DNA of 39,895 nucleotides from a virus: the IMG/VR virus record IMGVR_UViG_3300045988_079078; one strand, given 5' to 3'. Shown piece after piece: positions 4,608 to 39,895 of the stretch. The position numbers and the translations under genes are program-made. A model generated the notes under the pieces. The model made no database searches, was not told the origin of the DNA, and saw only the letters and a program-made list of their open reading frames with translations. Numbering within the stretch: position 1 is the stretch's first letter; each line of letters begins with the position of its first letter.

Positions 4608-5024
4608 ATGGACGTATCTTATATAAAAATGTTGATGGAGCGTCAAAACATGACGCAAGCAAAGCTGTCAGAATTGACAGACATTCCGGCGACCACTTTG
4701 TCTAAGATTCTCAACGGTTCTACCGACAGCCCAGCTTTTGCCAACATCGCAGCCATCGTAAAGGTGCTGGGGGGCAGCCTTGATGTGATGGTCGGCATCG
4801 TATCAGACCCGGATGCAGCGCCAGTGCAGCAATCAGAGCGCCAGCTATATCAACAGCTGATTGCAGACAAAGAGCGCCAGCTGCGCAGCATAAACGGCAT
4901 AATGGAACAGAAACAGCAATGGTTGCGCAAGATGTGGCGTGCTCTTATGATTACCGTTGTTATACTCGGCATAATACTTGTTGCAGACATTTTCATCGGT
5001 TCTGTAGGTTTTATCCGATATTAA
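4608..5024 (+). CDS. Membrane-anchored XRE-family HTH protein
   Basis: The RBS AGGTGA lies 5 nt before ATG 4608. The HTH is MTQAKLSELTDIPATTLSKILNG, followed by a coiled-coil-like middle and the C-terminal TM ALMITVVILGIILVADIFIG. Confidence 0.7.
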   Translation: MDVSYIKMLMERQNMTQAKLSELTDIPATTLSKILNGSTDSPAFANIAAIVKVLGGSLDVMVGIVSDPDAAPVQQSERQLYQQLIADKERQLRSINGIMEQKQQWLRKMWRALMITVVILGIILVADIFIGSVGFIRY

Positions 5025-6214: not shown

Positions 6215-6325
6215 AAGTACACACTTTTTATTCTCGGGCTGTATTTGGTATGGGGTCGATAATACCAACGGTACACACTTTTTGCGATAAGAAATGAATA
6301 TAATACCGTGCTTCGTGTAATAATC

Positions 6326-24108: not shown

Positions 24109-25107
24109 TTACTTTTTGAACTTTGCCAGCACGACTTTGGCTTCGTTGGTCAGAGCCGCAACGTAAAACTCGTCAGCGGTGATCTCGGTGGAACGGTTAC
24201 GCGGCTTGCGCTCGGTCTCCACGTTGATATTGCGCTTGCGGTAGATGGTCAGAGCGGGGACATCGTCCTCAGTCTCGCTGTCCTCGTTCAGCTTGACGAT
24301 GGGGCAAGCGTAATAGGCGGTAGCAGCAGCCTTGACCTTATCGCCGACAACCAGTGCAGCAGCGCAATGCGGCTGGATGGTCGCCAGATGCTTTTTGGTG
24401 GAGGTTTCGGCGGTAGTATCAGCGACAATCTCAATGGTGCCGGTGCTGTTGTCCTTCTCATACTCGATAGAAGGAACCTTGCGGGATGCGACAACGCGGG
24501 TGTTGGCGATCTTGCCAATTTCGCCGGTGACAGCAACGCCAGCCTGATACTTGTCAGCGCTGATAAAGTCAGCATCCTTGCGCAGGGTAGCCATCTGCTT
24601 GGGGTTGATGAACATGACCTTGTCGCTGTTGATCTCCTCGTTGAACACGTCGATAGCATCCACAACGCCGCTGTACTTGATAGCGGCAGCAGTGCCGTCA
24701 TACACCAGCGTAGCGCCCTGCAAGGCTTCCATGCAGTCATTGTCGATTTTAGCAGCGATAGACAGCGCCAGCTGCGCATTGGCTTCGCCAACAGGGTTGC
24801 CGTAGCCGGACAGCACAGCTTCATCGGTCAGGCCAACGCCCTTCATGGCCTTCTTGATTTTGTACTTCTTGTCCTTGGTGCTCATCTTGTCGATGTCAAC
24901 GTCAACGCCCTCTGCAACGTCTTCGGCGTCGCCAATGTAACCGTAAGACGGCACGGTAATGGTATCGCCGGGCACGCCGGCAAGGGTGTCATCCATTTTT
25001 GCAAAAGGTGCCACGCGGATTTTGTCAGGGATTTTAGCCGAAATCATATCGGCCATGACTTCCGGGTCGATCAGGTCTGCAAGCTTGGTCAAAATAGTAT
25101 CTGCCAT
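24109..25107 (-). CDS. Major capsid protein (HK97-fold type)
   Basis: It is 332 aa and follows the scaffold gene. Its composition suggests strong expression. Confidence 0.8.
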   Translation of the reverse strand: MADTILTKLADLIDPEVMADMISAKIPDKIRVAPFAKMDDTLAGVPGDTITVPSYGYIGDAEDVAEGVDVDIDKMSTKDKKYKIKKAMKGVGLTDEAVLSGYGNPVGEANAQLALSIAAKIDNDCMEALQGATLVYDGTAAAIKYSGVVDAIDVFNEEINSDKVMFINPKQMATLRKDADFISADKYQAGVAVTGEIGKIANTRVVASRKVPSIEYEKDNSTGTIEIVADTTAETSTKKHLATIQPHCAAALVVGDKVKAAATAYYACPIVKLNEDSETEDDVPALTIYRKRNINVETERKPRNRSTEITADEFYVAALTNEAKVVLAKFKK

Positions 25108-26788: not shown

Positions 26789-27813
26789 TTTTCAATCTTT
26801 CCAGCGTTTTGCGTAGCTCCTTCCTTCCAGCTTTCCCACTGCGCATAGGTCATATCCGATACAAGTATGCTCTTTCCCGTTTCCGGGTCGCGTGCACGGC
26901 GCAGTGGGTTCGGGGTTTTTGGCACATCGTCAAGCGCTGCAATTAGAGTACATCGGCAGTTATACACCAAATAGCCCGGTGCGCTTGCATCGCCGGGAAA
27001 CATAATCTCATAGCCGTCTACTTTAAACGGCTTGTCATTGTCAACTGTCTGACCATCCAGCATCGCGTGCGCGTGTCTGGTGCGGTTGTCCAGCGTTGCA
27101 AGCCATTGCTTTTTCAGCTTTATGCCCATGTCTTGTGCGGCGCGGTAAGTATCTAGCCTTCCCGCGTTCTGCGCTGCTGTAACCGCCGTTCTAGCGGTTC
27201 GGATAGCGCTTGTGCGGTTCATATCCTGCATACGGCTTTGTAAATCGTTGGCGATTTTCGGTATGCTTTTGCCTTGCAGGATGGAGCTTGTCACGCTGGC
27301 GGTAATCTGTTGCTTGCCGTATTTCATGTCAATTCCGCGCCGCAATGCCCGCTTTGGCGGGTAGTACGGCATCAAGTCTGGCTGTTCAACAATCAGACGT
27401 TTAACGGTCTGCTCATCCCACAGCGTAAAATCTGCTTTGTCGGAAACCTGCTCGATTTTGTAAGCGGCATAATTGCGATTCAAGCTGTAAATGCCCGGCG
27501 TGGCGTCATTGACATAGGCCACAGCCGTTGCATTAGCATCGGTGTACCTTTCTGCCACTTTATCGCGCAGGGCTTCAAAACGCTTTCCGCGCCCTATCTG
27601 CGCAAGCCGCCACTGCTTGTATTGCTGCTCTGTGATTTCGCCTGCATCGAGCTTTTCTTTCATGGCTGCATCACGCTTCTCGAATTGCTCAAAATAGGCT
27701 TTCACCGTGTCGGTCAGTTCGTCAGCAGCTTCTTTGTACAGCTTTGCGATGCGCTGTTCCAGCTTTGCAAGCTCCTTGTCGGTCAGTTTGTGGGCGTAAT
27801 CAGGTTTCGCCAT
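26785..27813 (-). CDS. Minor head / head morphogenesis protein (SPP1 gp7 / Mu F-like)
   Basis: It follows the portal gene and carries the LVYNCRCTLIA motif. Confidence 0.75.
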   Translation of the reverse strand: MAKPDYAHKLTDKELAKLEQRIAKLYKEAADELTDTVKAYFEQFEKRDAAMKEKLDAGEITEQQYKQWRLAQIGRGKRFEALRDKVAERYTDANATAVAYVNDATPGIYSLNRNYAAYKIEQVSDKADFTLWDEQTVKRLIVEQPDLMPYYPPKRALRRGIDMKYGKQQITASVTSSILQGKSIPKIANDLQSRMQDMNRTSAIRTARTAVTAAQNAGRLDTYRAAQDMGIKLKKQWLATLDNRTRHAHAMLDGQTVDNDKPFKVDGYEIMFPGDASAPGYLVYNCRCTLIAALDDVPKTPNPLRRARDPETGKSILVSDMTYAQWESWKEGATQNAGKIEK

Positions 27814-29203
27814 TGCCGTTCAGTCCTTCTCCCGGCTGGTTCTGCGGCTCATTAGGCTGCGGATTGTTATTCCTACGGTCAAGTTCCTCTGCCGCCTTTC
27901 GCTTCAAAAGCTCTTTTACTTCTTCAGGCGTCAGCCACGGCAGGTGGTTAAGCACGGCCTCGTCGTCAAGATACTCTGCCGCCGTCATAACCATCTGCGT
28001 CTCTTCAGTCTGGTTTGCAATGCGGTTCCACTTGAAAGACGGTTCATCTTCTACGCCAACGATTTTTAGCAGGTTTGCAATGAAGCCGCGGATGCAATAC
28101 TCAAAATCGCCGCATTTATCGTCCTGCTGCTGGTACGACAGTCGAATTGCTGTGGCCGTCATGTTGCCAGATAGTGCCTTTGCAGGATTCATAAGCATTG
28201 AGTTCTCGTACATATCATCTTTCAAGTAGTCAAGCAGCATTTTGTTGGCATCAACGGGCACCGCAAGAGTGTTTGCCTGCGCATCTACCCCGCGATCAAG
28301 AACAACAGCGTGCAGCTGCTTCATTCGATTGACAAAATTCACCAAATCAGCATCTTCCATGCCGCCGGTGCCTTTCAGCACCCAGTAAAAAGCGCTTGTT
28401 TCGTCAACGTTATTTGCCATACCCGACATGATAAAGTCATAGCAATCAATGCTTGGGCGGATACCAATTAGCTCCGATTCCTGCAAATCGTTGGCATACA
28501 TGGGGATAATCGGAAAACCCGGATAATTCTCACCTATAACATCAACGATGCCGTCTGCTTCTGTTCGCTTGATTTGTCGCTTGTATGGATGCTTTTCCTG
28601 CAAAACCATCATTTTCTCTTTATCGCGCTGGATGTACTCTGTCAAACCGTCTGGCTCGTACAGCGTCCAGCGCTTTGTGCCATCCTCAAAACTCCAATAC
28701 CGCACACCTGCCCGCAGCGCTCGTGTATCCTGGTCATACAGCGGGGCAAATCCTGGGCTGTTTGGAGTGTCTGCAAAGCTAAATACTTCCAGATGGTCAT
28801 AATTCCAGAAGCCAAAAGCAACGCCGTCAACACAAGCCTTTTTTGCTAAATCTTGCAATCTGTTGTCAAACTGCGTCCCCAACTTATCCTTTGTATCGGT
28901 TTTCCCAAACGTCACGCCATTGGAAAGCACATATTGCACCTGCTGCAACACAAACTGCCGAAAAAATCCGTGTGTCAGCTTGTAATTACTCGACCACACA
29001 TCTTTTACCGCTTCACCAGTTGCCGTGCGCAGCATTTTTTGATAGTTCAGAATCGTAATGTTGCGTTTTGCGTAATATGCTTCTGCATCCCGTGCTACTC
29101 TGTATCTTTCACAGCCCTTGTGCTCTTGTACAAGCTCTTTCACAAATTCCTGGCGGGCACTTTCATCGTTTTGAAGTTTTTCTAAATTTTGGTATACCTT
29201 CAT
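27800..29203 (-). CDS. Portal protein
   Basis: It is 467 aa, lies directly after TerL and has an acidic C-terminus. Confidence 0.85.
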   Translation of the reverse strand: MKVYQNLEKLQNDESARQEFVKELVQEHKGCERYRVARDAEAYYAKRNITILNYQKMLRTATGEAVKDVWSSNYKLTHGFFRQFVLQQVQYVLSNGVTFGKTDTKDKLGTQFDNRLQDLAKKACVDGVAFGFWNYDHLEVFSFADTPNSPGFAPLYDQDTRALRAGVRYWSFEDGTKRWTLYEPDGLTEYIQRDKEKMMVLQEKHPYKRQIKRTEADGIVDVIGENYPGFPIIPMYANDLQESELIGIRPSIDCYDFIMSGMANNVDETSAFYWVLKGTGGMEDADLVNFVNRMKQLHAVVLDRGVDAQANTLAVPVDANKMLLDYLKDDMYENSMLMNPAKALSGNMTATAIRLSYQQQDDKCGDFEYCIRGFIANLLKIVGVEDEPSFKWNRIANQTEETQMVMTAAEYLDDEAVLNHLPWLTPEEVKELLKRKAAEELDRRNNNPQPNEPQNQPGEGLNGNGET

Positions 29204-29213
29204 ACTCGCCCCT

Positions 29214-30437
29214 TTAAATCAGCCAATTTACTGTTTGTGTTGCAGATTTTCTCCAAATTCCTGCCGTCTGAATAACGTACCTCAAAGCATCCATAGCATG
29301 ATCATTTTCTTTGATAACTTTATCTTCCGGGGCGGTTTCGTCCCAGCGGTAAAGCCCAAATTCCTGTATCGTGCGCTTGCAACAGTCGTTTACCAGTAAC
29401 TTTTTATCCGCAATACACTGCGCCACATGCTGGATTCCCTCAATAACGGTATTGTCAGCATCCCAAATTTTGAATTTATGTTCTTTTTCAACCAGAGCAA
29501 TAAAAGAAGCAGCAGACGGGTCAACGATTAATCGTTTAATCGTCAAATCTCCCGCCAGTTGCTTTAAATCCACGTAATATTCAGCGTCAGTTTTTTGCTG
29601 ATTCGTTTCTCTTCCGCTGTGGTAGAACTCTTTTACAACGTACCAAACGCCGTCACAATGCCCAACTAACAACATTGCAGTAGGGTTCAAAATGCCGTAG
29701 TCCATGCCGATATAGTAAGTATCATATTTTCTCTGCACTGTTGGTACAACGTTATCAAACATCGGGTACACAAGGCCATCTGCAACAACCCACAAGCCGC
29801 GAATATAGCGGTCGTAAAACACGCCGCTATACATATTTTTGTACCGTTCAAGCGTCTTTTGGCTCAGGCTTGGATTGTCCGTCATTGCAAACTGCAAATA
29901 CAACGCATTTCTCTCATCCCGGCGCATAATCCAATTTTTGTAGAACCAATGTTGCGGACTGCCTGGGTTGCAACTAAACCATATTTTCGCGCCGTCAACA
30001 CTGCATCGGGCAAGAGCCTGGTTTACAAAAGATTCCGGCATCAACGCCACTTCGTCCAGCAACACGCCAGCCAATGTGCGTCCTTGAATCAGCATAAAAG
30101 AGGATTCATCTTTGCCGCCGAAAACCTCAAAATAGTTGCGTTTGCCGTCTTTGCTGATAACTTCAAGCACCTTGTCGGCACGTCTCCATTTGAGCGTATA
30201 TATCTCTTTTGCAAGAGTCATGGAAATAAACGGCACAATAATATTTTTTTGTGCGCTATCAACGGTTTTACCACAAATCCCAAACCGTTGATTGTCAAAA
30301 CGCTCCATTGCCCATTTTACGAACGCCCACGTCTCGATAGACGTTTTGCCAGAGCGAACAGCCCCATCACAAATTATTGCGTCATAATTACTATATGGGA
30401 ACGCAAGTATCTTTTTTTGCTTATCACTGATCGCCAT
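29214..30437 (-). CDS. terL: Terminase large subunit
   Basis: Walker A is DGAVRSGKT. The protein is 407 aa and overlaps TerS. Confidence 0.9.
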   Translation of the reverse strand: MAISDKQKKILAFPYSNYDAIICDGAVRSGKTSIETWAFVKWAMERFDNQRFGICGKTVDSAQKNIIVPFISMTLAKEIYTLKWRRADKVLEVISKDGKRNYFEVFGGKDESSFMLIQGRTLAGVLLDEVALMPESFVNQALARCSVDGAKIWFSCNPGSPQHWFYKNWIMRRDERNALYLQFAMTDNPSLSQKTLERYKNMYSGVFYDRYIRGLWVVADGLVYPMFDNVVPTVQRKYDTYYIGMDYGILNPTAMLLVGHCDGVWYVVKEFYHSGRETNQQKTDAEYYVDLKQLAGDLTIKRLIVDPSAASFIALVEKEHKFKIWDADNTVIEGIQHVAQCIADKKLLVNDCCKRTIQEFGLYRWDETAPEDKVIKENDHAMDALRYVIQTAGIWRKSATQTVNWLI

Positions 30438-30807
30438 CGCTCTTTAACGACCTCGCCAGTTCTCTTAGGCTTGCGCTCAGCCCATCATCTTGCACTGCTC
30501 CCTCTGCGATTGTAGTCTCCACTTGATCTTTCTGCCCCAGATACTGCTTGCCTAGCCAAATTGCCATATTTGCGTTCTTTTCAGCAAGCCTCCACTGGTG
30601 CCTGCGCAGCGATATTTTCCCCGTGCTGCGCTTTTCCTTGAATACCTCGGAAAAAGTTTTGTTATATGTCTTTTTGCACCATGAATTAAGTGTTTTATCC
30701 GTTATGCCGAACCAACCACAGATTTCTTCAAGGGTGCATTGCAATCCGCATAGGCTTTCAAACTGTTTTTGGTCTATGTTCTTTTTGGGTCTACCTGTGC
30801 GAGCCAT
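30424..30807 (-). CDS. terS: Terminase small subunit
   Basis: The N-terminal HTH-like region is MARTGRPKKNIDQKQFESLCGLQCTLEEICGWFGITDKTLNSW. The call is supported by position. Confidence 0.75.
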   Translation of the reverse strand: MARTGRPKKNIDQKQFESLCGLQCTLEEICGWFGITDKTLNSWCKKTYNKTFSEVFKEKRSTGKISLRRHQWRLAEKNANMAIWLGKQYLGQKDQVETTIAEGAVQDDGLSASLRELARSLKSDGDQ

Positions 30808-30811
30808 TCTC

Positions 30812-31759
30812 TCACCCTTTCACCCGCTTTTCTTTGATTCTGCAAGAGCATTTAGGCTCTTTCGCCCATTTTTTGAAGATGAATTGCATTTGGGTATCAA
30901 TCTTCTCTTTATCTTTCACAAGAACGCCAACCTTAAACGGTTTCAGAATGTGCTTGAAATAGGCTGCTCCTGCTTCCGCTTGCGATGTGATGCAGTTGCT
31001 TTTGCTTCTCATTCCGCAGCTGTAAATATTGCCATACAGTTTGCGCATATGCTCGCCACGTTTTACACCAGCTTCGGCATATGCTTTTCGGCATCCAGTC
31101 AGGTCTTTGTTTTGCGCTTGCCCTGTCTTGCTATACCGCAAAGGTGCAACCTGAACAGATGGGACGCCCATTTGCTTTAGTTTCAAGCGAAACTCGACGT
31201 CGTCCTCAAAGTCACCTTGGAATAAATCAGGGCATCTGTCAACATCCAATGCAAAGCAGCTATATACAAATCTCTCCGACAAATAATCATCCGCAGGAGC
31301 AGCTACGCCGCATAGCGTACAGCCTGACATTGCAGCATTAGTGCATTCCAGCACAGTTACAAGCGTATCTACGAAATCATCAAGCATTTCATCTCTGCTT
31401 TCGACGCGGTATCGCTTGATTGTCTTGTCGTCGATTTTTCGCGTGTACCCGATTTCTAAAAATGTTATGTTATCGTCCAACTGGATAAGATATCTGTACC
31501 CATGTTCACGTGCGTACTTGATCGCATAGCTGCGGTTCATCGGGGCATACCACGCATTGTCGCTTGTCTTTGCAACGGACTTATACCATTCCTCATATTC
31601 TTTAGGAACGTTTACAATTTCCCAATCGGTGTCGTATCCCTCTGAATTGTTAGAAATGATGATATGCGGGTATACGGTTTTATTTTTCTCCGTCGGGCGC
31701 TGCTGTTTCGTTCCCGGACGTTTCCCCGATATCTCCACTATCAGTGTTTTCTCTTTCAT
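30812..31759 (-). CDS. GT-A (GT2-like) glycosyltransferase-fold protein with no TM segment
   Basis: NRSYAIKYAREHGYRYLIQLDDN fits the GT2 RN..A..G..fLD.DD pattern, and GDFEDDVEFRLKLKQMG fits the ED..l.lR...G pattern. The RBS GGGAGGG lies before ATG 31759. Confidence 0.5.
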   Translation of the reverse strand: MKEKTLIVEISGKRPGTKQQRPTEKNKTVYPHIIISNNSEGYDTDWEIVNVPKEYEEWYKSVAKTSDNAWYAPMNRSYAIKYAREHGYRYLIQLDDNITFLEIGYTRKIDDKTIKRYRVESRDEMLDDFVDTLVTVLECTNAAMSGCTLCGVAAPADDYLSERFVYSCFALDVDRCPDLFQGDFEDDVEFRLKLKQMGVPSVQVAPLRYSKTGQAQNKDLTGCRKAYAEAGVKRGEHMRKLYGNIYSCGMRSKSNCITSQAEAGAAYFKHILKPFKVGVLVKDKEKIDTQMQFIFKKWAKEPKCSCRIKEKRVKG

Positions 31760-32270
31760 CCTGCATACCCTCCCAATATTTTTGCAGGCGTTCCAGCTTT
31801 TCTTTGCTGTCACTTTTGAAAACAGCCTCGTACATTACGCCAAACTCGTTGTTTTCCACTGCTGCCTTGTCGCTTTCATCAAGGGTATTATCAAACAGCC
31901 CCCCCAATTCAAAGCCAGTAAACAGAGCGTCATCGTCAAACGCATCAAGTTCTTCCAGCTCTTGCAGCAGCTTCTTGTTATCCCAGATTGCGACATCTGA
32001 AACCTTATTGTCAGCAAGCCGAAACGCCTTGATTTGCTCCGGCGTGAGGTCGTCCGCAATCACGCACGGAACCTCTTTCAGTTTCAGTTCCTGCGCTGCC
32101 TTATATCGCGTATGCCAGCATACAATTTCTCCGTCAGCCGCAATCACAATCGGAACTTTGAAACCATACGCTTCAATGCTTTTTGCGACTGCCGCTGCTG
32201 CCTTGTCATTGATTCTTGGGTTGTTTTCGTATGGGTGGATTTCTTCCAGCGATTTCATCACAACTTGCAT
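31680..32270 (-). CDS. ParB N-terminal-domain protein with an acidic tail (no methyltransferase domain)
   Basis: RBS is GGAGG. It has EEIHPYENNPRINDK...KVPIVIAADGEIVCWHTRYKAA...FRLADNKVSD. Confidence 0.75.
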   Translation of the reverse strand: MQVVMKSLEEIHPYENNPRINDKAAAAVAKSIEAYGFKVPIVIAADGEIVCWHTRYKAAQELKLKEVPCVIADDLTPEQIKAFRLADNKVSDVAIWDNKKLLQELEELDAFDDDALFTGFELGGLFDNTLDESDKAAVENNEFGVMYEAVFKSDSKEKLERLQKYWEGMQDERENTDSGDIGETSGNETAAPDGEK

Positions 32271-32290
32271 AACTTCCTCCTTTATGCAAC

Positions 32291-32320
32291 ACAAAAAGCC
32301 CACACAATTTGTGTAGGCTT
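32291..32320 (-). terminator. Intrinsic terminator 17 nt upstream of the ParB RBS
   Basis: The minus-strand RNA reads AAGCCTACACA-AAT-TGTGTGGGCTT followed by TTTGTGTT. Confidence 0.65.
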
Positions 32321-32775
32321 GATTTCCCCAAAACCCCTTTGCGCCGGAGGAAAAGCGCTTTCCCGCCCTACCGGTTTATGCTGTGCCGGTCTCACCCGTT
32401 GCGGGTAGCAAATCCGCAACGCTTTCATACAGTCAGAATTTACCGTGCCTGCTGTCCACACGCTTTTTTCATCCGCTGCATTTATATAAAATAGCGCCGC
32501 ATTCGGAGTGACAGCGCCAGCCTTGACCCGGCACGGTTCCGCTGAACTTACCCGCCAGCAAACACGTGGAAAAGGTTTATCCCTTACGGGCAAGCCCATT
32601 GCATGGCCTTGGTGTTGCGCTCGACCTCATGCGGGCAGGCGCAGCATATAAAATGCCCGTCTTTCCGGGCTGCCAGCTATAAGAATAGGAGAATTGAAAC
32701 AATAAAAAAAAGAGGTTTTAGCTATGCCGTAGGCTGTCCCGGTCCTACATCATCCAGCATATCTATAATAGCAGG
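32291..32775 (-). ncRNA. Candidate structured leader / ncRNA (about 480 nt, unclassified)
   Basis: No credible ORF is present. The region is GC-rich, unlike the other AT-rich intergenic regions. It has multiple hairpins (a GNRA-capped CCC-GTAA-GGG, and GTTGCGG...CCGCAAC), three terminator-like elements and a thrice-repeated motif. Confidence 0.35.
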
Positions 32776-33207
32776 TTAAAAGTGAACTGGAGTGCACAGA
32801 TTTTCAATTGCAGCGCGGTGTAATTTTTTTGCCCATCGCTCGGAAATATTTAGATTTATAGCAATCTTCCACCAATACGGTGTGCCGACAATATACCGTT
32901 CCCGCAAAACGTCCCGTTGCATTTGGTCTTGCACAGAGTTTATTGCGGTTTCAATTTCTTCCCTTTGCATCTCGGTGTCAATAATCTGCTTGTATAGAGC
33001 TTCTTGGCGCTCCATTATTCTGCAAACGGCATCCTCGATTTTATTTTTACCGCCGGCAGACACCACAACGGGGGATAATGCTTTAGTTGTCGCTGCTGCT
33101 CGTTCACGTTCGCTCTGTATCTGCTGGCGCAGCTGTCGTTCACAATTCCTGCTGCGTTGGTATCTCCACAGCCACGCTTTCTTTTGGTTGAATTCTTCTC
33201 TGGTCAT
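32776..33207 (-). CDS. Late-gene activator candidate (sigma-70 region-4 / ArpU-RinA-DUF1492-like)
   Basis: It is 143 aa. The C-terminal region LRERYIVGTPYWWKIAINLNISERWAKKLHRAAIENL is HTH-like. Its position upstream of the packaging genes is typical. Confidence 0.6.
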   Translation of the reverse strand: MTREEFNQKKAWLWRYQRSRNCERQLRQQIQSERERAAATTKALSPVVVSAGGKNKIEDAVCRIMERQEALYKQIIDTEMQREEIETAINSVQDQMQRDVLRERYIVGTPYWWKIAINLNISERWAKKLHRAAIENLCTPVHF

Positions 33208-33328
33208 TGGCTCTCCTTTCTTTCAGTTTCATGCAGCGCGGCAGCGTGCAAATATTGTCATTCTTCCACTCGCATGTCGCGCAAAGATGTTCGCGGGCGT
33301 ATTCATCAACTAGTTGCTGTTTTGTCAT
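33140..33328 (-). CDS. Small Cys-rich protein (62 aa)
   Basis: It has an ATGA overlap with the upstream stop and carries CATCEW...CTLPRC. Its 3' end overlaps the activator gene by 68 nt. Confidence 0.45.
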   Translation of the reverse strand: MTKQQLVDEYAREHLCATCEWKNDNICTLPRCMKLKERRANDQRRIQPKESVAVEIPTQQEL

Positions 33329-33918
33329 GGGGTCACCTCCGGGGGTTTAGGGAGCGGCATCCAATGGGTGACGGCGGTCCCGTTAAATTTTCTTTCTTTT
33401 CCGTAGTGAAATATCGCTTGAAATCCATCTCCGATATTGCAAAAACACAATACATACTCGTCTTTTTCCGGCAGCCTGTCTTTAACGCTTATCCATTCAC
33501 TCATTTGCGGTCGCTCTGGCTCTTTCCCTACTTCCTTGCAGAAGTCCAAGTAATCATCTACGGCATTGCGGAACTCTTTCTCAATATTTTCGATTTCAAA
33601 CGCATGAAAATTTACCAAATCCTTGATGCCATCCAATGTTCCATGCCAGAGTTTATCGTCTTCATCATACTCTACCGTAGCAGTGTACCCGCGATAAGCA
33701 AGTTTTGGCTCTTTCATGTGATCCACGGTTCCGCGCATAATGTGCGCCGTAGACCGTATCGCGTCCGGGTTATCTGCCAATTTCTGCAACTCATTCAGGT
33801 CTTCAAGTATACATGTAATGCCGCATGTATTGCACTCTTTTGTTATGTCCGTACACATGCCACAGGCATCGCTGTATTTCGTGATTTTATCGCGGATTGC
33901 TTCTTGAAGTTGTGTCAT
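33325..33918 (-). CDS. HicB-like fold fused to a DUF551-like C-terminal domain
   Basis: The RBS GGAGG lies before ATG 33918. YRGYTATVEYDEDDKLWHGTLDGIKDLVNFHAFEIENIEKEFRNAVDDYLDFCKEVG is HicB-like, and WISVKDRLPEKDEYVL...THWMPLPKPP is DUF551-like. Confidence 0.55.
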   Translation of the reverse strand: MTQLQEAIRDKITKYSDACGMCTDITKECNTCGITCILEDLNELQKLADNPDAIRSTAHIMRGTVDHMKEPKLAYRGYTATVEYDEDDKLWHGTLDGIKDLVNFHAFEIENIEKEFRNAVDDYLDFCKEVGKEPERPQMSEWISVKDRLPEKDEYVLCFCNIGDGFQAIFHYGKERKFNGTAVTHWMPLPKPPEVTP

Positions 33919-39562: not shown

Positions 39563-39895
39563 TTGGACACCTCCACAAGCACGCCGTTTTTCAGCTTGTA
39601 CCAGGTATCGGACTTGATGTTTTCACCGTCAACTTTAAAGCACTGCACATCTTTACGATGCCAGTTAAATTTCTCGTCGCTTTCCCATTCTGCAATCACA
39701 ATCCAGCATCCTAAAGCGCCTTTAGCTTTACTATCAATGCCGAGCGCAGCAGCAACGCTTTCCGTGCCTGTAGCAGATGCCGCGCCCTGCCAGCCTGTAG
39801 CAGATGCCGCGCCCTGGTCGCCTGTAGCAGATGCCGCGCCCCGCCAGCCTGTAGCAGATGCCGCGCCCCGCCAGCCTGTAGCAGATGCCGCGCCC
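39559..39895 (-). CDS. C-terminal part of the 9-aa-repeat protein (continues from 1-529 across the circular junction)
   Basis: The frame is open from the window edge. The translation is ...ASATGTESVAAALGIDSKAKGALGCWIVIAEWESDEKFNWHRKDVQCFKVDGENIKSDTWYKLKNGVLVEVSK*, with the stop at 39559-39561. Confidence 0.8.
   Translation of the reverse strand, partial: GAASATGWRGAASATGWRGAASATGDQGAASATGWQGAASATGTESVAAALGIDSKAKGALGCWIVIAEWESDEKFNWHRKDVQCFKVDGENIKSDTWYKLKNGVLVEVSK
39767..39895. repeat. 27-nt tandem repeat, 4.8 units, same family as 1-196
   Basis: Units start at 39767, 39794, 39821, 39848 and 39875 (the last is partial, 21 nt). Confidence 0.97.

Follow-up and report, generated by a model that had tools for sequence, protein, structure and literature searches.

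A D12-methyl RNA and an intrinsic terminator ahead of the late genes of a phage contig: a possible leader for late-operon read-through

Introduction

What is the role of the long gap that separates the gene of a late activator from the late genes in an otherwise tightly packed phage genome? The question is raised by the IMG/VR virus record IMGVR_UViG_3300045988_079078, whose whole stretch of 39,895 nucleotides (nt) was analysed here and is referred to as the window. An earlier note, made from the sequence alone, had described in this gap a GC-rich region of about 480 nt, read as a structured leader or non-coding RNA (ncRNA) with three terminator-like hairpins. We found in the gap, on the minus strand at 32358-32421, a copy of Rfam family RF02950, the D12-methyl RNA motif, which is followed by a predicted intrinsic terminator, T3, just before the first ribosome-binding site of the late genes. 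We tentatively propose that the element is a cis-acting leader RNA governing read-through into the late operon, perhaps by antitermination.

D12-methyl is a catalogued phage RNA motif without an assigned function, and the window copy is nearly consensus. The motif was reportedly described by Weinberg and colleagues in 2017, in a supplement; the main text of that paper does not mention it, and a literature search with the terms "D12-methyl" and "RF02950" returned no paper that does. Its name presumably comes from adjacency to genes of D12-class N6-adenine DNA methyltransferases. Taken alone, the window gives a modest result, that is, a near-consensus catalogued motif with ordinary terminators and a mosaic spacer. 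What is new comes from about 190 human-gut phage contigs, in which the motif lies consistently at the boundary between regulatory or early genes and DNA-modification or packaging genes. Half of the copies are tied to a predicted, conserved intrinsic terminator, and essential genes behind it would be expressed by read-through only; the element is a junction for the exchange of methylase, glycosyltransferase and terminase cassettes, and the name-giving link to D12 methylases concerns a small minority of the copies. The outcome is a testable hypothesis, control of late-operon read-through, for a widespread gut-phage RNA.

Results

The gap contains a full-length D12-methyl RNA

The Rfam scan of the whole window gave one match, RF02950, at 32358-32421 (minus strand), which covers model positions 1-64 of 64 with a score of 93.2 bits (gathering score 57; E = 4.2e-16) and aligns near-identically to the consensus. 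A permissive scan of 32100-33000 showed, besides this match, a single one at chance level. We regard it as practically certain that this segment is a copy of the D12-methyl motif. According to the Rfam alignment, its parts are the following:

32421-32414 paired with 32404-32397, minus strand: helix P1
32413-32405, minus strand: loop 1
32396-32391, minus strand: linker GGUGAG
32390-32386 paired with 32374-32370, minus strand: helix P2
32385-32375, minus strand: loop 2
32369-32358, minus strand: 3' tail, AGGGCGGGAAAG

The window copy shares with the family the full-length match, the two hairpins, the GGUGAG linker and the tail AGGGCGGGAA, linker and tail being equal to the consensus at all positions, as well as the setting, which is an uncultivated phage or metagenome sequence with a same-strand gene downstream. 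It differs in that this gene encodes a ParB_N-like protein and is followed by a glycosyltransferase gene, and not by that of a D12-class methyltransferase. The helices that the earlier note had listed as GTTGCGG-N9-CCGCAAC and ACCGG-N11-CCGGT are real and correspond to P1 and P2. An unclassified phage ncRNA had been among its suggested roles; comparison with Rfam instead places the element, at full length, in a catalogued family.

Relatives were selected with fixed sequence patterns. A 16-base core pattern occurred in more than 118 IMG/VR contigs, with about 100 true copies, and a longer pattern in 91 stretches of metagenome contigs, which derive from human gut wherever the record names are informative. 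The family sample comprises 186 related human-gut phage contigs, and covariation was assessed on 60 distinct core sequences. Since the linker GGUGAG was fixed by the search pattern, its invariance in this sample is uninformative, and the diversity of linker and P2 is under-sampled. In bacterial genomes the 16-base pattern gave 120 matches, all of them chance hits in unrelated genomes, none of which extends into the rest of the motif, and blastn searches of cultured phages and plasmids with the gap and with a 146-nt element found nothing similar.

Across the 60 distinct cores, 95.1% of the cells were paired, a share that fell to 30-48% in a control with slid partners; for P1 and P2 the figures were 98% and 99.7%. 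Both helices covary, with double changes at two pairs of P1 (in 15 and 8 sequences) and at one pair of P2 (in 9 sequences). P1, P2 and the terminator also contain G-U pairs, which on the opposite strand would give A-C; these pairs are valid on the gene strand only and therefore indicate that the RNA is read from the gene (minus) strand. The Rfam match and the covariation bear out the proposal that the transcribed (minus) strand has a conserved RNA structure in the interval separating the late activator gene from the late genes.

The D12-methyl tail is nearly invariant in the same set. The UGCU of loop 1 is complementary to the AGCA of loop 2 in 57-60 of the 60 sequences, with one double change (UCGCU/AGCGA), and this is suggestive of a loop-loop contact, which could be an intramolecular or an intermolecular kissing interaction.

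Some variants were seen at this site. L116 and L118 have a D12-methyl variant without the whole P2 hairpin, GGGTGAGACCGG-TAGGGCGGG, which looks like a deletion between two CCGG repeats. Upstream of P1, relatives carry an A-run, AAUCAAAAAAG (for instance at 5946-5957 of L011, 10 nt upstream); on the opposite strand, P1 followed by the U-run CUUUUUUGAUU would read as a terminator of antisense transcription. The A-run of the window (32422-32430) is weaker, AUGAAAG.

A conserved terminator follows the motif in half of the family

Between the end of the motif and the first late gene the minus strand contains:

32321-32358, minus strand: 3' extension beyond the Rfam model, present in 96 of the 186 family members; it reads GCGC (32358-32355), UUUU, CCUCC (32350-32346), G, GCGC (32344-32341), AAA, GGGG (32337-32334), UUUU, GGGG (32329-32326)
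32286-32320, minus strand: T3, an intrinsic terminator by the terminator scan, AAGCCUACACA-AAU-UGUGUGGGCUU (hairpin 32320-32296), then UUUGUGUUGC
31680-32280, minus strand: Shine-Dalgarno (SD) sequence GGAGG (32280-32276) and the ParB_N-like gene (ATG at 32270), the first gene behind T3

T3 lies 38 nt downstream of the D12-methyl core, and some 15 nt separate its end from the SD sequence of the ParB gene. It has an 11-bp stem and a 3-nt loop (-15.6 kcal/mol, z -5.5), followed by UUUGUGUU, and is predicted to be a canonical conserved intrinsic terminator. Its versions CCUACACA/UGUGUGGG and CUCAUGC/GCAUGGG differ by two compensatory pairs and two wobble changes. A terminator directly after the RNA and just before the first ribosome-binding site, as the earlier note had proposed, is thus supported. 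Since T3 lies about 15 nt before the SD sequence, and the downstream genes are packed without room for a promoter, the late genes would need read-through of T3.

The family divides into two forms at this point. In form A (96 of 186 members, the window included) the motif continues as GCGC-UUUUCCUCCG-GCGC, AAA, GGGG, three or four U, GGRGG, the terminator hairpin and a U-run, and the ribosome-binding site follows about 15-25 nt after the U-run. In form B (90 of 186) it runs as NNN-GGGG-AAUUUUU-GAGG straight into the ribosome-binding site, with no terminator. The Rfam model ends at nt 64, and the further GGGG tract is conserved beyond it in the family; half of the members thus differ from the catalogued family in adding a CCUCC/GGRGG helix and an intrinsic terminator past the model. 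In the window, CCUCC can pair with the second G-tract (32329-32326). The RNAalifold consensus of 39 form A leaders pairs CCUCC with GGRGG, the middle U being opposite G in 29 and A in 9 of them. This consensus consists of independent helices, and no conserved pairing in it competes with the 5' arm of T3. G-tracts are invariant in the family, with GGG belonging to the linker, GGG-C-GGG to the tail and GGGG to the sequence behind it; their spacing may put the hairpins in the loops of a would-be G-quadruplex, the insertion of form A being exactly such a hairpin.

When the window region was compared by BLAST with the first 118 loci, the 64-nt core was common to about 100 of them and the next 70 nt, up to the U-run of the 32320-32296 hairpin, to about 60. 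The segment 32440-32500 was found in about 10 loci, and 32500-32775 in almost none. The 139 nt at 32286-32424 (minus strand) fold with a z of -2.1 with respect to shuffled sequences. Conservation, covariation and above-random stability limit the supported structured RNA to about 130 nt (32290-32421).

The element lies in a 505-nt gap at a junction of gene exchange

The whole gap spans 32271-32775, from the base just upstream of the start codon of the ParB-like gene to the base next to the last coding base of the activator gene (32776), with all genes on the minus strand. Independent gene calls on L334, L335, L337, L338 and L341, which carry an identical activator, gave the same spacing, so that the non-coding region announced at about 480 nt is real and measures 505 nt. 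On a crude estimate based on open reading frames (ORFs), it is the longest non-coding stretch of the window, the next being of 340 nt. Its description as GC-rich stands marginally (51.3%, as compared to 49.2% for the whole window): it suits the D12-methyl core and 32500-32640, both at 60%, but not 32641-32775, at 43%. The only ORF that had been noticed here (105 aa, 32282-32599) was judged unlikely to be coding, and we also reject it as a gene. It has no match in Pfam, it runs through the D12-methyl motif and the terminator, and the 1-nt insertions and deletions among homologous leaders indicate that it is not coding. The genes around the gap, besides the ParB-like one, are:

32776-33207, minus strand: late transcriptional activator gene, 143 aa, DUF1492 (LtrB) family (Pfam PF07374, E = 2.5e-7)
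30812-31813, minus strand: TAGT-like glycosyltransferase gene (Pfam PF20691; PHROG 842)
30424-30807, minus strand: terS, small terminase subunit gene (terS PHROGs)
29214-30437, minus strand: terL (Pfam)
27800-29203, minus strand: portal gene (ORF table)

The activator also matches PHROG 36 and 248 (transcriptional regulator/activator). The ParB_N score of the first late gene in Pfam, 25.4 bits, is slightly below the curated cut-off of 26.3; the gene matches PHROG 620 (E = 3e-49), and the gene calls of L334 and L335 concur. According to the ORF table, the glycosyltransferase gene, terS, terL and the portal gene follow it in this order with no gaps between them. The TerL protein is nearest to TerL proteins of Firmicutes phages.

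In the IMG/VR set, all 100 true instances of the motif precede the next gene and share its strand. This gene is terL in 62 loci, a ParB-methylase gene in 14, the portal gene in 9, a D12 methylase gene in 4, and another gene in the rest. The D12 methylase is therefore an association and not a requirement. In L095 the next gene is that of a D12-class methyltransferase; this protein of 422 aa contains about 17 SLQ/RLQ repeat units in its middle, a run which suggests a variable tandem repeat within the gene.

Contigs with the identical activator and leader differ in what comes behind. The ParB_N gene and a gene like that of a TET-associated glycosyltransferase are found in the window, L334 and L335, and a D12 methylase gene (PF02086) in L337. 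In L336, whose leader lacks 41 nt, a ParB-N6_N4 methylase gene comes first, and in L339 and L340, with no modification gene, terS comes first. The leader and T3 are kept through every one of these swaps (ParB plus TAGT, D12 methylase, ParB-N6_N4 methylase, terS), and the first genes behind the leader appear to be a swappable DNA-modification cassette. The gap of L334, L335, L337, L338, L341 and L339 is identical to that of the window except for a few changes in or after the D12-methyl element; in L339 it runs 58 nt further before the first called gene, and in L340 it is longer by about 500 nt, which include a tRNA-like element. Three terminase types stand beside the element, one of the Terminase_6N type with 497 aa (a weak Pfam match, E = 5e-4), Terminase_3 with 427 aa, and that of the window with 407 aa. 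The small terminase subunits beside it also differ, and two unrelated activator families occur upstream of the motif.

The 5' part of the gap is a mosaic spacer

The upstream 350 nt contain three features with a hairpin or repeat, and one variable cassette:

32716-32775, minus strand: segment after the activator stop codon, with motif copy 1, GCTATTATAGATATGCTGG, at 32772-32754 (repeat family D1)
32641-32670, minus strand: T1, hairpin GCCCG-GAAAGA-CGGGC (32670-32655) by the terminator scan, and AUUUUAUAUGCUGC (motif copy 2)
32496-32612, minus strand: variable cassette, here called module X, in 10 other IMG/VR loci at varying distance from the D12 motif; it includes the hairpin CCC-GTAA-GGG (32590-32581) and a T-arm-like hairpin, GCCGG-GTCAAGG-CTGGC
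32492-32519, minus strand: T2, 9-bp hairpin with a 10-nt loop (-12.1 kcal/mol, z -2.5), then UAUUUUAUAUAAAU (motif copy 3)

T1 has 5 bp (-11.0 kcal/mol, z -4.8) and starts 105 nt after the last base of the activator gene. In relatives it shows a compensatory change from GCCCG/CGGGC to GCCGG/CCGGC and a wobble form, GCCCG/CUGGC. T1 most likely ends the activator or early operon, as described for Ltr-type phages (PMC3753634). Contigs with the same activator keep the first 135 nt after the stop codon, this hairpin included, and then have 525-670 nt of other sequence with a 58-nt tRNA-like element.

In module X, which had no match in Rfam and no tRNA match by Rfam and ARAGORN, the CCC-GTAA-GGG hairpin is deleted in L059 and L066. 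The segment 32478-32660 folds no better than shuffled sequences (z +0.10). With this value, partial deletion in some relatives and no compensatory change seen in the aligned ones, 32500-32640 was rejected as a supported second RNA structure. T2, unreported by the terminator scan, has an invariant stem in relatives, where its loop takes an insertion of 18 nt, and closes the variable cassette. Neither ARAGORN nor Rfam finds a tRNA or tRNA-like element in the window.

Thus, of the three hairpins that the earlier note had treated as terminators, two are supported by the scan (32320-32296 and 32670-32655), and the third (32519-32492) does not appear in it and has a z of -2.5. They are not equivalents, since T1 most likely ends the activator operon, T3 belongs to the leader and T2 closes a cassette. 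The region had been called full of helices on the minus strand; this holds for its 3' part (32286-32424), but the 5' 351 nt (32425-32775) show no structure signal (z +0.45 with respect to shuffles). Nor is the gap a single structured element of 480 nt, in that only about 130 nt are conserved, covarying and stable. Identity over the 5' 350 nt is confined to the closest relatives, which leaves no information on covariation; more distant relatives have this part rearranged or deleted, or have tRNA genes in its place.

The motif repeated three times was recovered independently as repeat family D1, but its 14-nt version is not enriched over the window (8 occurrences as compared to 6.4 expected), and a window-wide enrichment was accordingly rejected as not significant. 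In relatives, two of the motif copies are the conserved junction of a hairpin and AUUUUAUAUGCUGC that closes successive cassettes. A switch had also been suggested, in which 32528-32537 pairs either with 32442-32449 or with 32383-32389. The plain complementarity exists, but one base pair of it is lost in relatives with GGCACGTT; the switch has no comparative backing, and in 500 nt roughly as many 8-bp matches would arise by chance (by estimate, 1-2 are expected).

Several observations on this part of the relatives deserve mention. Genuine tRNA genes precede the motif on its own strand in many other relatives; wherever the positions of gene and motif were both listed, about 280-400 nt lie between them. 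ARAGORN calls genes of 84-86 nt tRNA-His with anticodon ATG (L001 8500-8585, plus strand; L011 5591-5676, plus strand). The 58-nt tRNA-like element (minus strand in L037 at 2605-2662, L033 at 4660-4717 and L095 at 6223-6280) scores 40.9 bits with the Rfam tRNA model and appears to be without an anticodon arm. Between the activator terminator and the D12 motif relatives have several hundred nt of conserved non-coding sequence, which produced a spurious "ORF family" in 64 loci; examples are L011 4960-5180 and 5680-5950, and L037 between the T1-equivalent hairpin and the tRNA-like element. In this stretch no Rfam family besides tRNA and D12-methyl reached its gathering score.

Candidate promoter boxes upstream of P1

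A simple sigma-70 scan of 31500-33500 scored no promoter. Comparison of the family revealed that the sequences ahead of P1 fall into at least five unrelated classes that all have a TAnAAT-like box at a distance of 12-17 nt from the helix, and two such boxes are candidate promoter elements in the window:

32480-32486, minus strand: distal TATAAAT box, -10-like
32437-32442, minus strand: proximal TAAATT box, 15 nt upstream of P1

The proximal box occurs identically, with identical spacing, in L001, L006, L018 and L054. In L336 the 41-nt deletion removes it and brings the distal box to 17 nt from P1; the proximal box is dispensable in this contig. We infer that the boxes fit a -10-only, activator-dependent promoter, which would place D12-methyl at the 5' end of the transcript. 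Conservation of the segment 32716-32775 is restricted to contigs that share the 143-aa activator; under the other activator family the segment differs, and it may be a candidate activator-binding or promoter region. An Ltr-controlled region would have activator-binding repeats beside the ltr stop codon, ahead of the late promoter (PMC3753634). Here short repeats occur (families D1 and D5) and the segment co-varies with the activator family, but no promoter is scored.

Discussion

A proposed leader controlling read-through into the late operon

In the mechanism that we propose, D12-methyl would make up the 5'-proximal portion of a leader that acts in cis on the late operon, which comprises DNA modification and packaging. 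Transcription of the activator or early operon would end at T1 (32670-32655), and a new transcript would start from a -10-only, activator-dependent promoter, for which TATAAAT and TAAATT, 15-60 nt upstream of P1, are candidates. The two hairpins and the G-rich tail would then fold at or near the 5' end of this transcript, after which the polymerase would meet the CCUCC/GGRGG helix and the strong terminator T3 (32320-32296). ParB, glycosyltransferase, terS, terL and portal would be expressed solely by read-through of T3, which D12-methyl would set through an effect on the polymerase during elongation, either unaided or together with a factor from host or phage. Such an action would be akin to antitermination of the put or nut type, unlike a classical toggle between aptamer and terminator. 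This account of a leader with perhaps antitermination is possible rather than established, yet a leader with regulated termination and an antitermination RNA, both suggested by the earlier note, are still the leading readings, given a conserved RNA and T3.

The proposal is favoured by D12-methyl being the only conserved upstream element always linked to T3, and by the 96 of 186 instances in which extension and terminator are present with their pairing kept by compensatory changes. A further terminator-like site lies within the late operon, namely the hairpin GGCAGC-ATTAC-GCTGCC followed by TTTTTT at 24009-23993 (minus strand), directly behind the ORF of 332 aa at 24109-25107. No conserved pairing overlaps the 5' arm of T3, which argues for an action on the polymerase. 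The activator is also in line with it: members of the DUF1492 (LtrB) family were shown to activate a late promoter upstream of terS in phages of Gram-positive bacteria, in a layout of ltr gene, terminator, late promoter and late genes (PMC3753634). In the passages of that paper on the Ltr types (RinA, ArpU, LtrA, LtrB and LtrC), a terminator is expected between ltr and the late promoter. The window likewise has a probable terminator behind the ltr gene and a late operon beginning with terS further downstream. It differs in that the regions described there are short, with no structured leader RNA or second terminator mentioned in those passages (PMC3753634), whereas here the gap has 505 nt (in relatives, where it contains tRNAs, as much as about 1 kb), and D12-methyl and T3 lie between the presumed promoter and the first late gene.

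Several points weigh against the proposal. In 90 of the 186 members there is no terminator and the motif runs straight into the ribosome-binding site, so that control of a local terminator cannot be the sole or general job of the motif. The -10-like boxes are weak matches, none of them scored by the promoter scan. The element is also a recombination junction, and some of its conservation may come from recent exchange and not from selection on the RNA. Finally, T3 could simply be a leaky, unregulated attenuator.

Two known systems offer a comparison. The put RNAs of coliphage HK022 (putL and putR) are antiterminator RNAs that need no factor. Like the window core of 64 nt, they consist of about 65-70 nt that form two neighbouring stem-loops in the nascent RNA, and they precede terminators which polymerase has to pass for the phage genes behind to be expressed. 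They differ in host, the phages here being of the Firmicutes type in the gut, in the strong sequence conservation of loops and tail of D12-methyl, and in that half of the D12-methyl copies have no adjacent terminator; the likeness is one of layout. That D12-methyl is an RNA-based processive antitermination signal of gut Firmicutes-type phages, an independent analogue of put with a fold going beyond the two hairpins, is an idea to which we give little weight. In lambda, the late regulator Q acts at PR'-6S RNA-tR', where a short leader leads to a strong terminator and the late genes depend on read-through. The late-regulator gene, the leader ending at a strong terminator and the late genes expressed by read-through are the same here. 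However, the loading of Q depends on a DNA site and on a pause close to the promoter, and no conserved structure is required of the 6S RNA, whereas the leader RNA of the window is conserved and covarying and the regulator is of the Ltr type.

Other explanations of the same evidence

The conserved loops and tail would also be expected of a recognition surface, and the RNA could be a stand-alone small RNA (sRNA) of about 130-140 nt, made from a promoter near P1 to T3 and acting in trans on host or phage mRNAs or proteins, with the late genes reached by incidental read-through. Rfam classes the family as "Gene; sRNA", a -10-like box stands at a fixed 12-17 nt from P1, and 96 of 186 members have a strong terminator about 100 nt downstream. 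We consider this unlikely, though of the alternatives it deserves most attention: the other 90 members, without a terminator, run on into coding sequence, so that the RNA is not always a discrete unit, the essential packaging genes have no other visible promoter, and no target can be named. The terminator-free members are accommodated more easily by a 5' module for mRNA stability or processing, in which hairpins and SD-like purine tracts (GGGCGGG, GGGG, GGRGG) would shield the late mRNA from decay that depends on the 5' end. STAB-SD elements and 5' stem-loop stabilisers exist in Firmicutes and are the systems with which this compares. The protection would become relevant after cleavage from an upstream precursor containing tRNAs, and tRNA genes or tRNA-like elements do lie upstream on the same strand in many relatives, at the 280-400 nt given above; the G-rich SD-like tracts are conserved in forms A and B, and the explanation suits both forms alike. 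We nevertheless find both the protection and its link to precursor cleavage rather improbable, as generic stabilisers need no such sequence conservation, and the near-invariant loop and linker sequences and the conserved terminator would be left unexplained.

Highly conserved unpaired nucleotides in loops, linker and tail, a position in a 5' untranslated region and the DNA methyltransferase genes that adjoin some members would suit a metabolite-binding riboswitch, with an aptamer for a small molecule (for example one linked to methylation or the nucleotide pool) and T3 or the ribosome-binding site as expression platform. This is improbable. About 40 nt with a helix of their own separate core and terminator, which have no mutually exclusive pairing, most members precede terminase or portal genes and not metabolic genes, and the core is small and simple, with two hairpins only. 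No competing helix in the consensus of 39 leaders, together with the missing terminator in half of the family (90 of 186), makes a classical toggle unlikely, and it was rejected; the data agree better with an action on polymerase during elongation, or on the stability or translation of the whole transcript. A role at the level of DNA, as a protein-binding site (pac or activator site) or a mere linker that promotes exchange, would account for the constant vicinity of terminase genes, for cassette breakpoints in or beside the element and for a very high nucleotide identity across otherwise mosaic genomes. Against it, compensatory changes keep P1, P2 and T3 paired and the G-U pairs fit one strand only, at least three terminase types, with differing small subunits, stand beside the same sequence and would not share a pac site, and two unrelated activator families are found upstream. 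We judge this role very improbable; a pac or cos site in particular is unlikely, and was rejected on the unrelated terminases and the RNA-type covariation. That all of the roughly 480 nt form a single large structured RNA, leader or ncRNA, in which three terminators are regulated and a pairing switch operates, has next to no probability. The three hairpin-plus-U elements and the three-fold motif are indeed present, but the 5' 351 nt fold like shuffled sequences, they are rearranged, deleted or replaced in relatives by 525-1000 nt of sequence containing tRNAs, and the proposed switch is not conserved.

Further observations on the contigs

RAGATH-5 (RF02685) was found just over its gathering score in two relatives, at 1169-1221 of L045 and 6298-6350 of L075, both on the minus strand. 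The ends of the window carry a 27-nt tandem repeat with the consensus CTGTAGCAGATGCCGCGCCCTGCCAGC, in 7.3 copies at 1-197 and 4.8 copies at 39766-39895. These terminal repeats could be iterons or part of a repeat-containing gene; joined, they would give an array of about 12 copies, through which the contig is probably circular.

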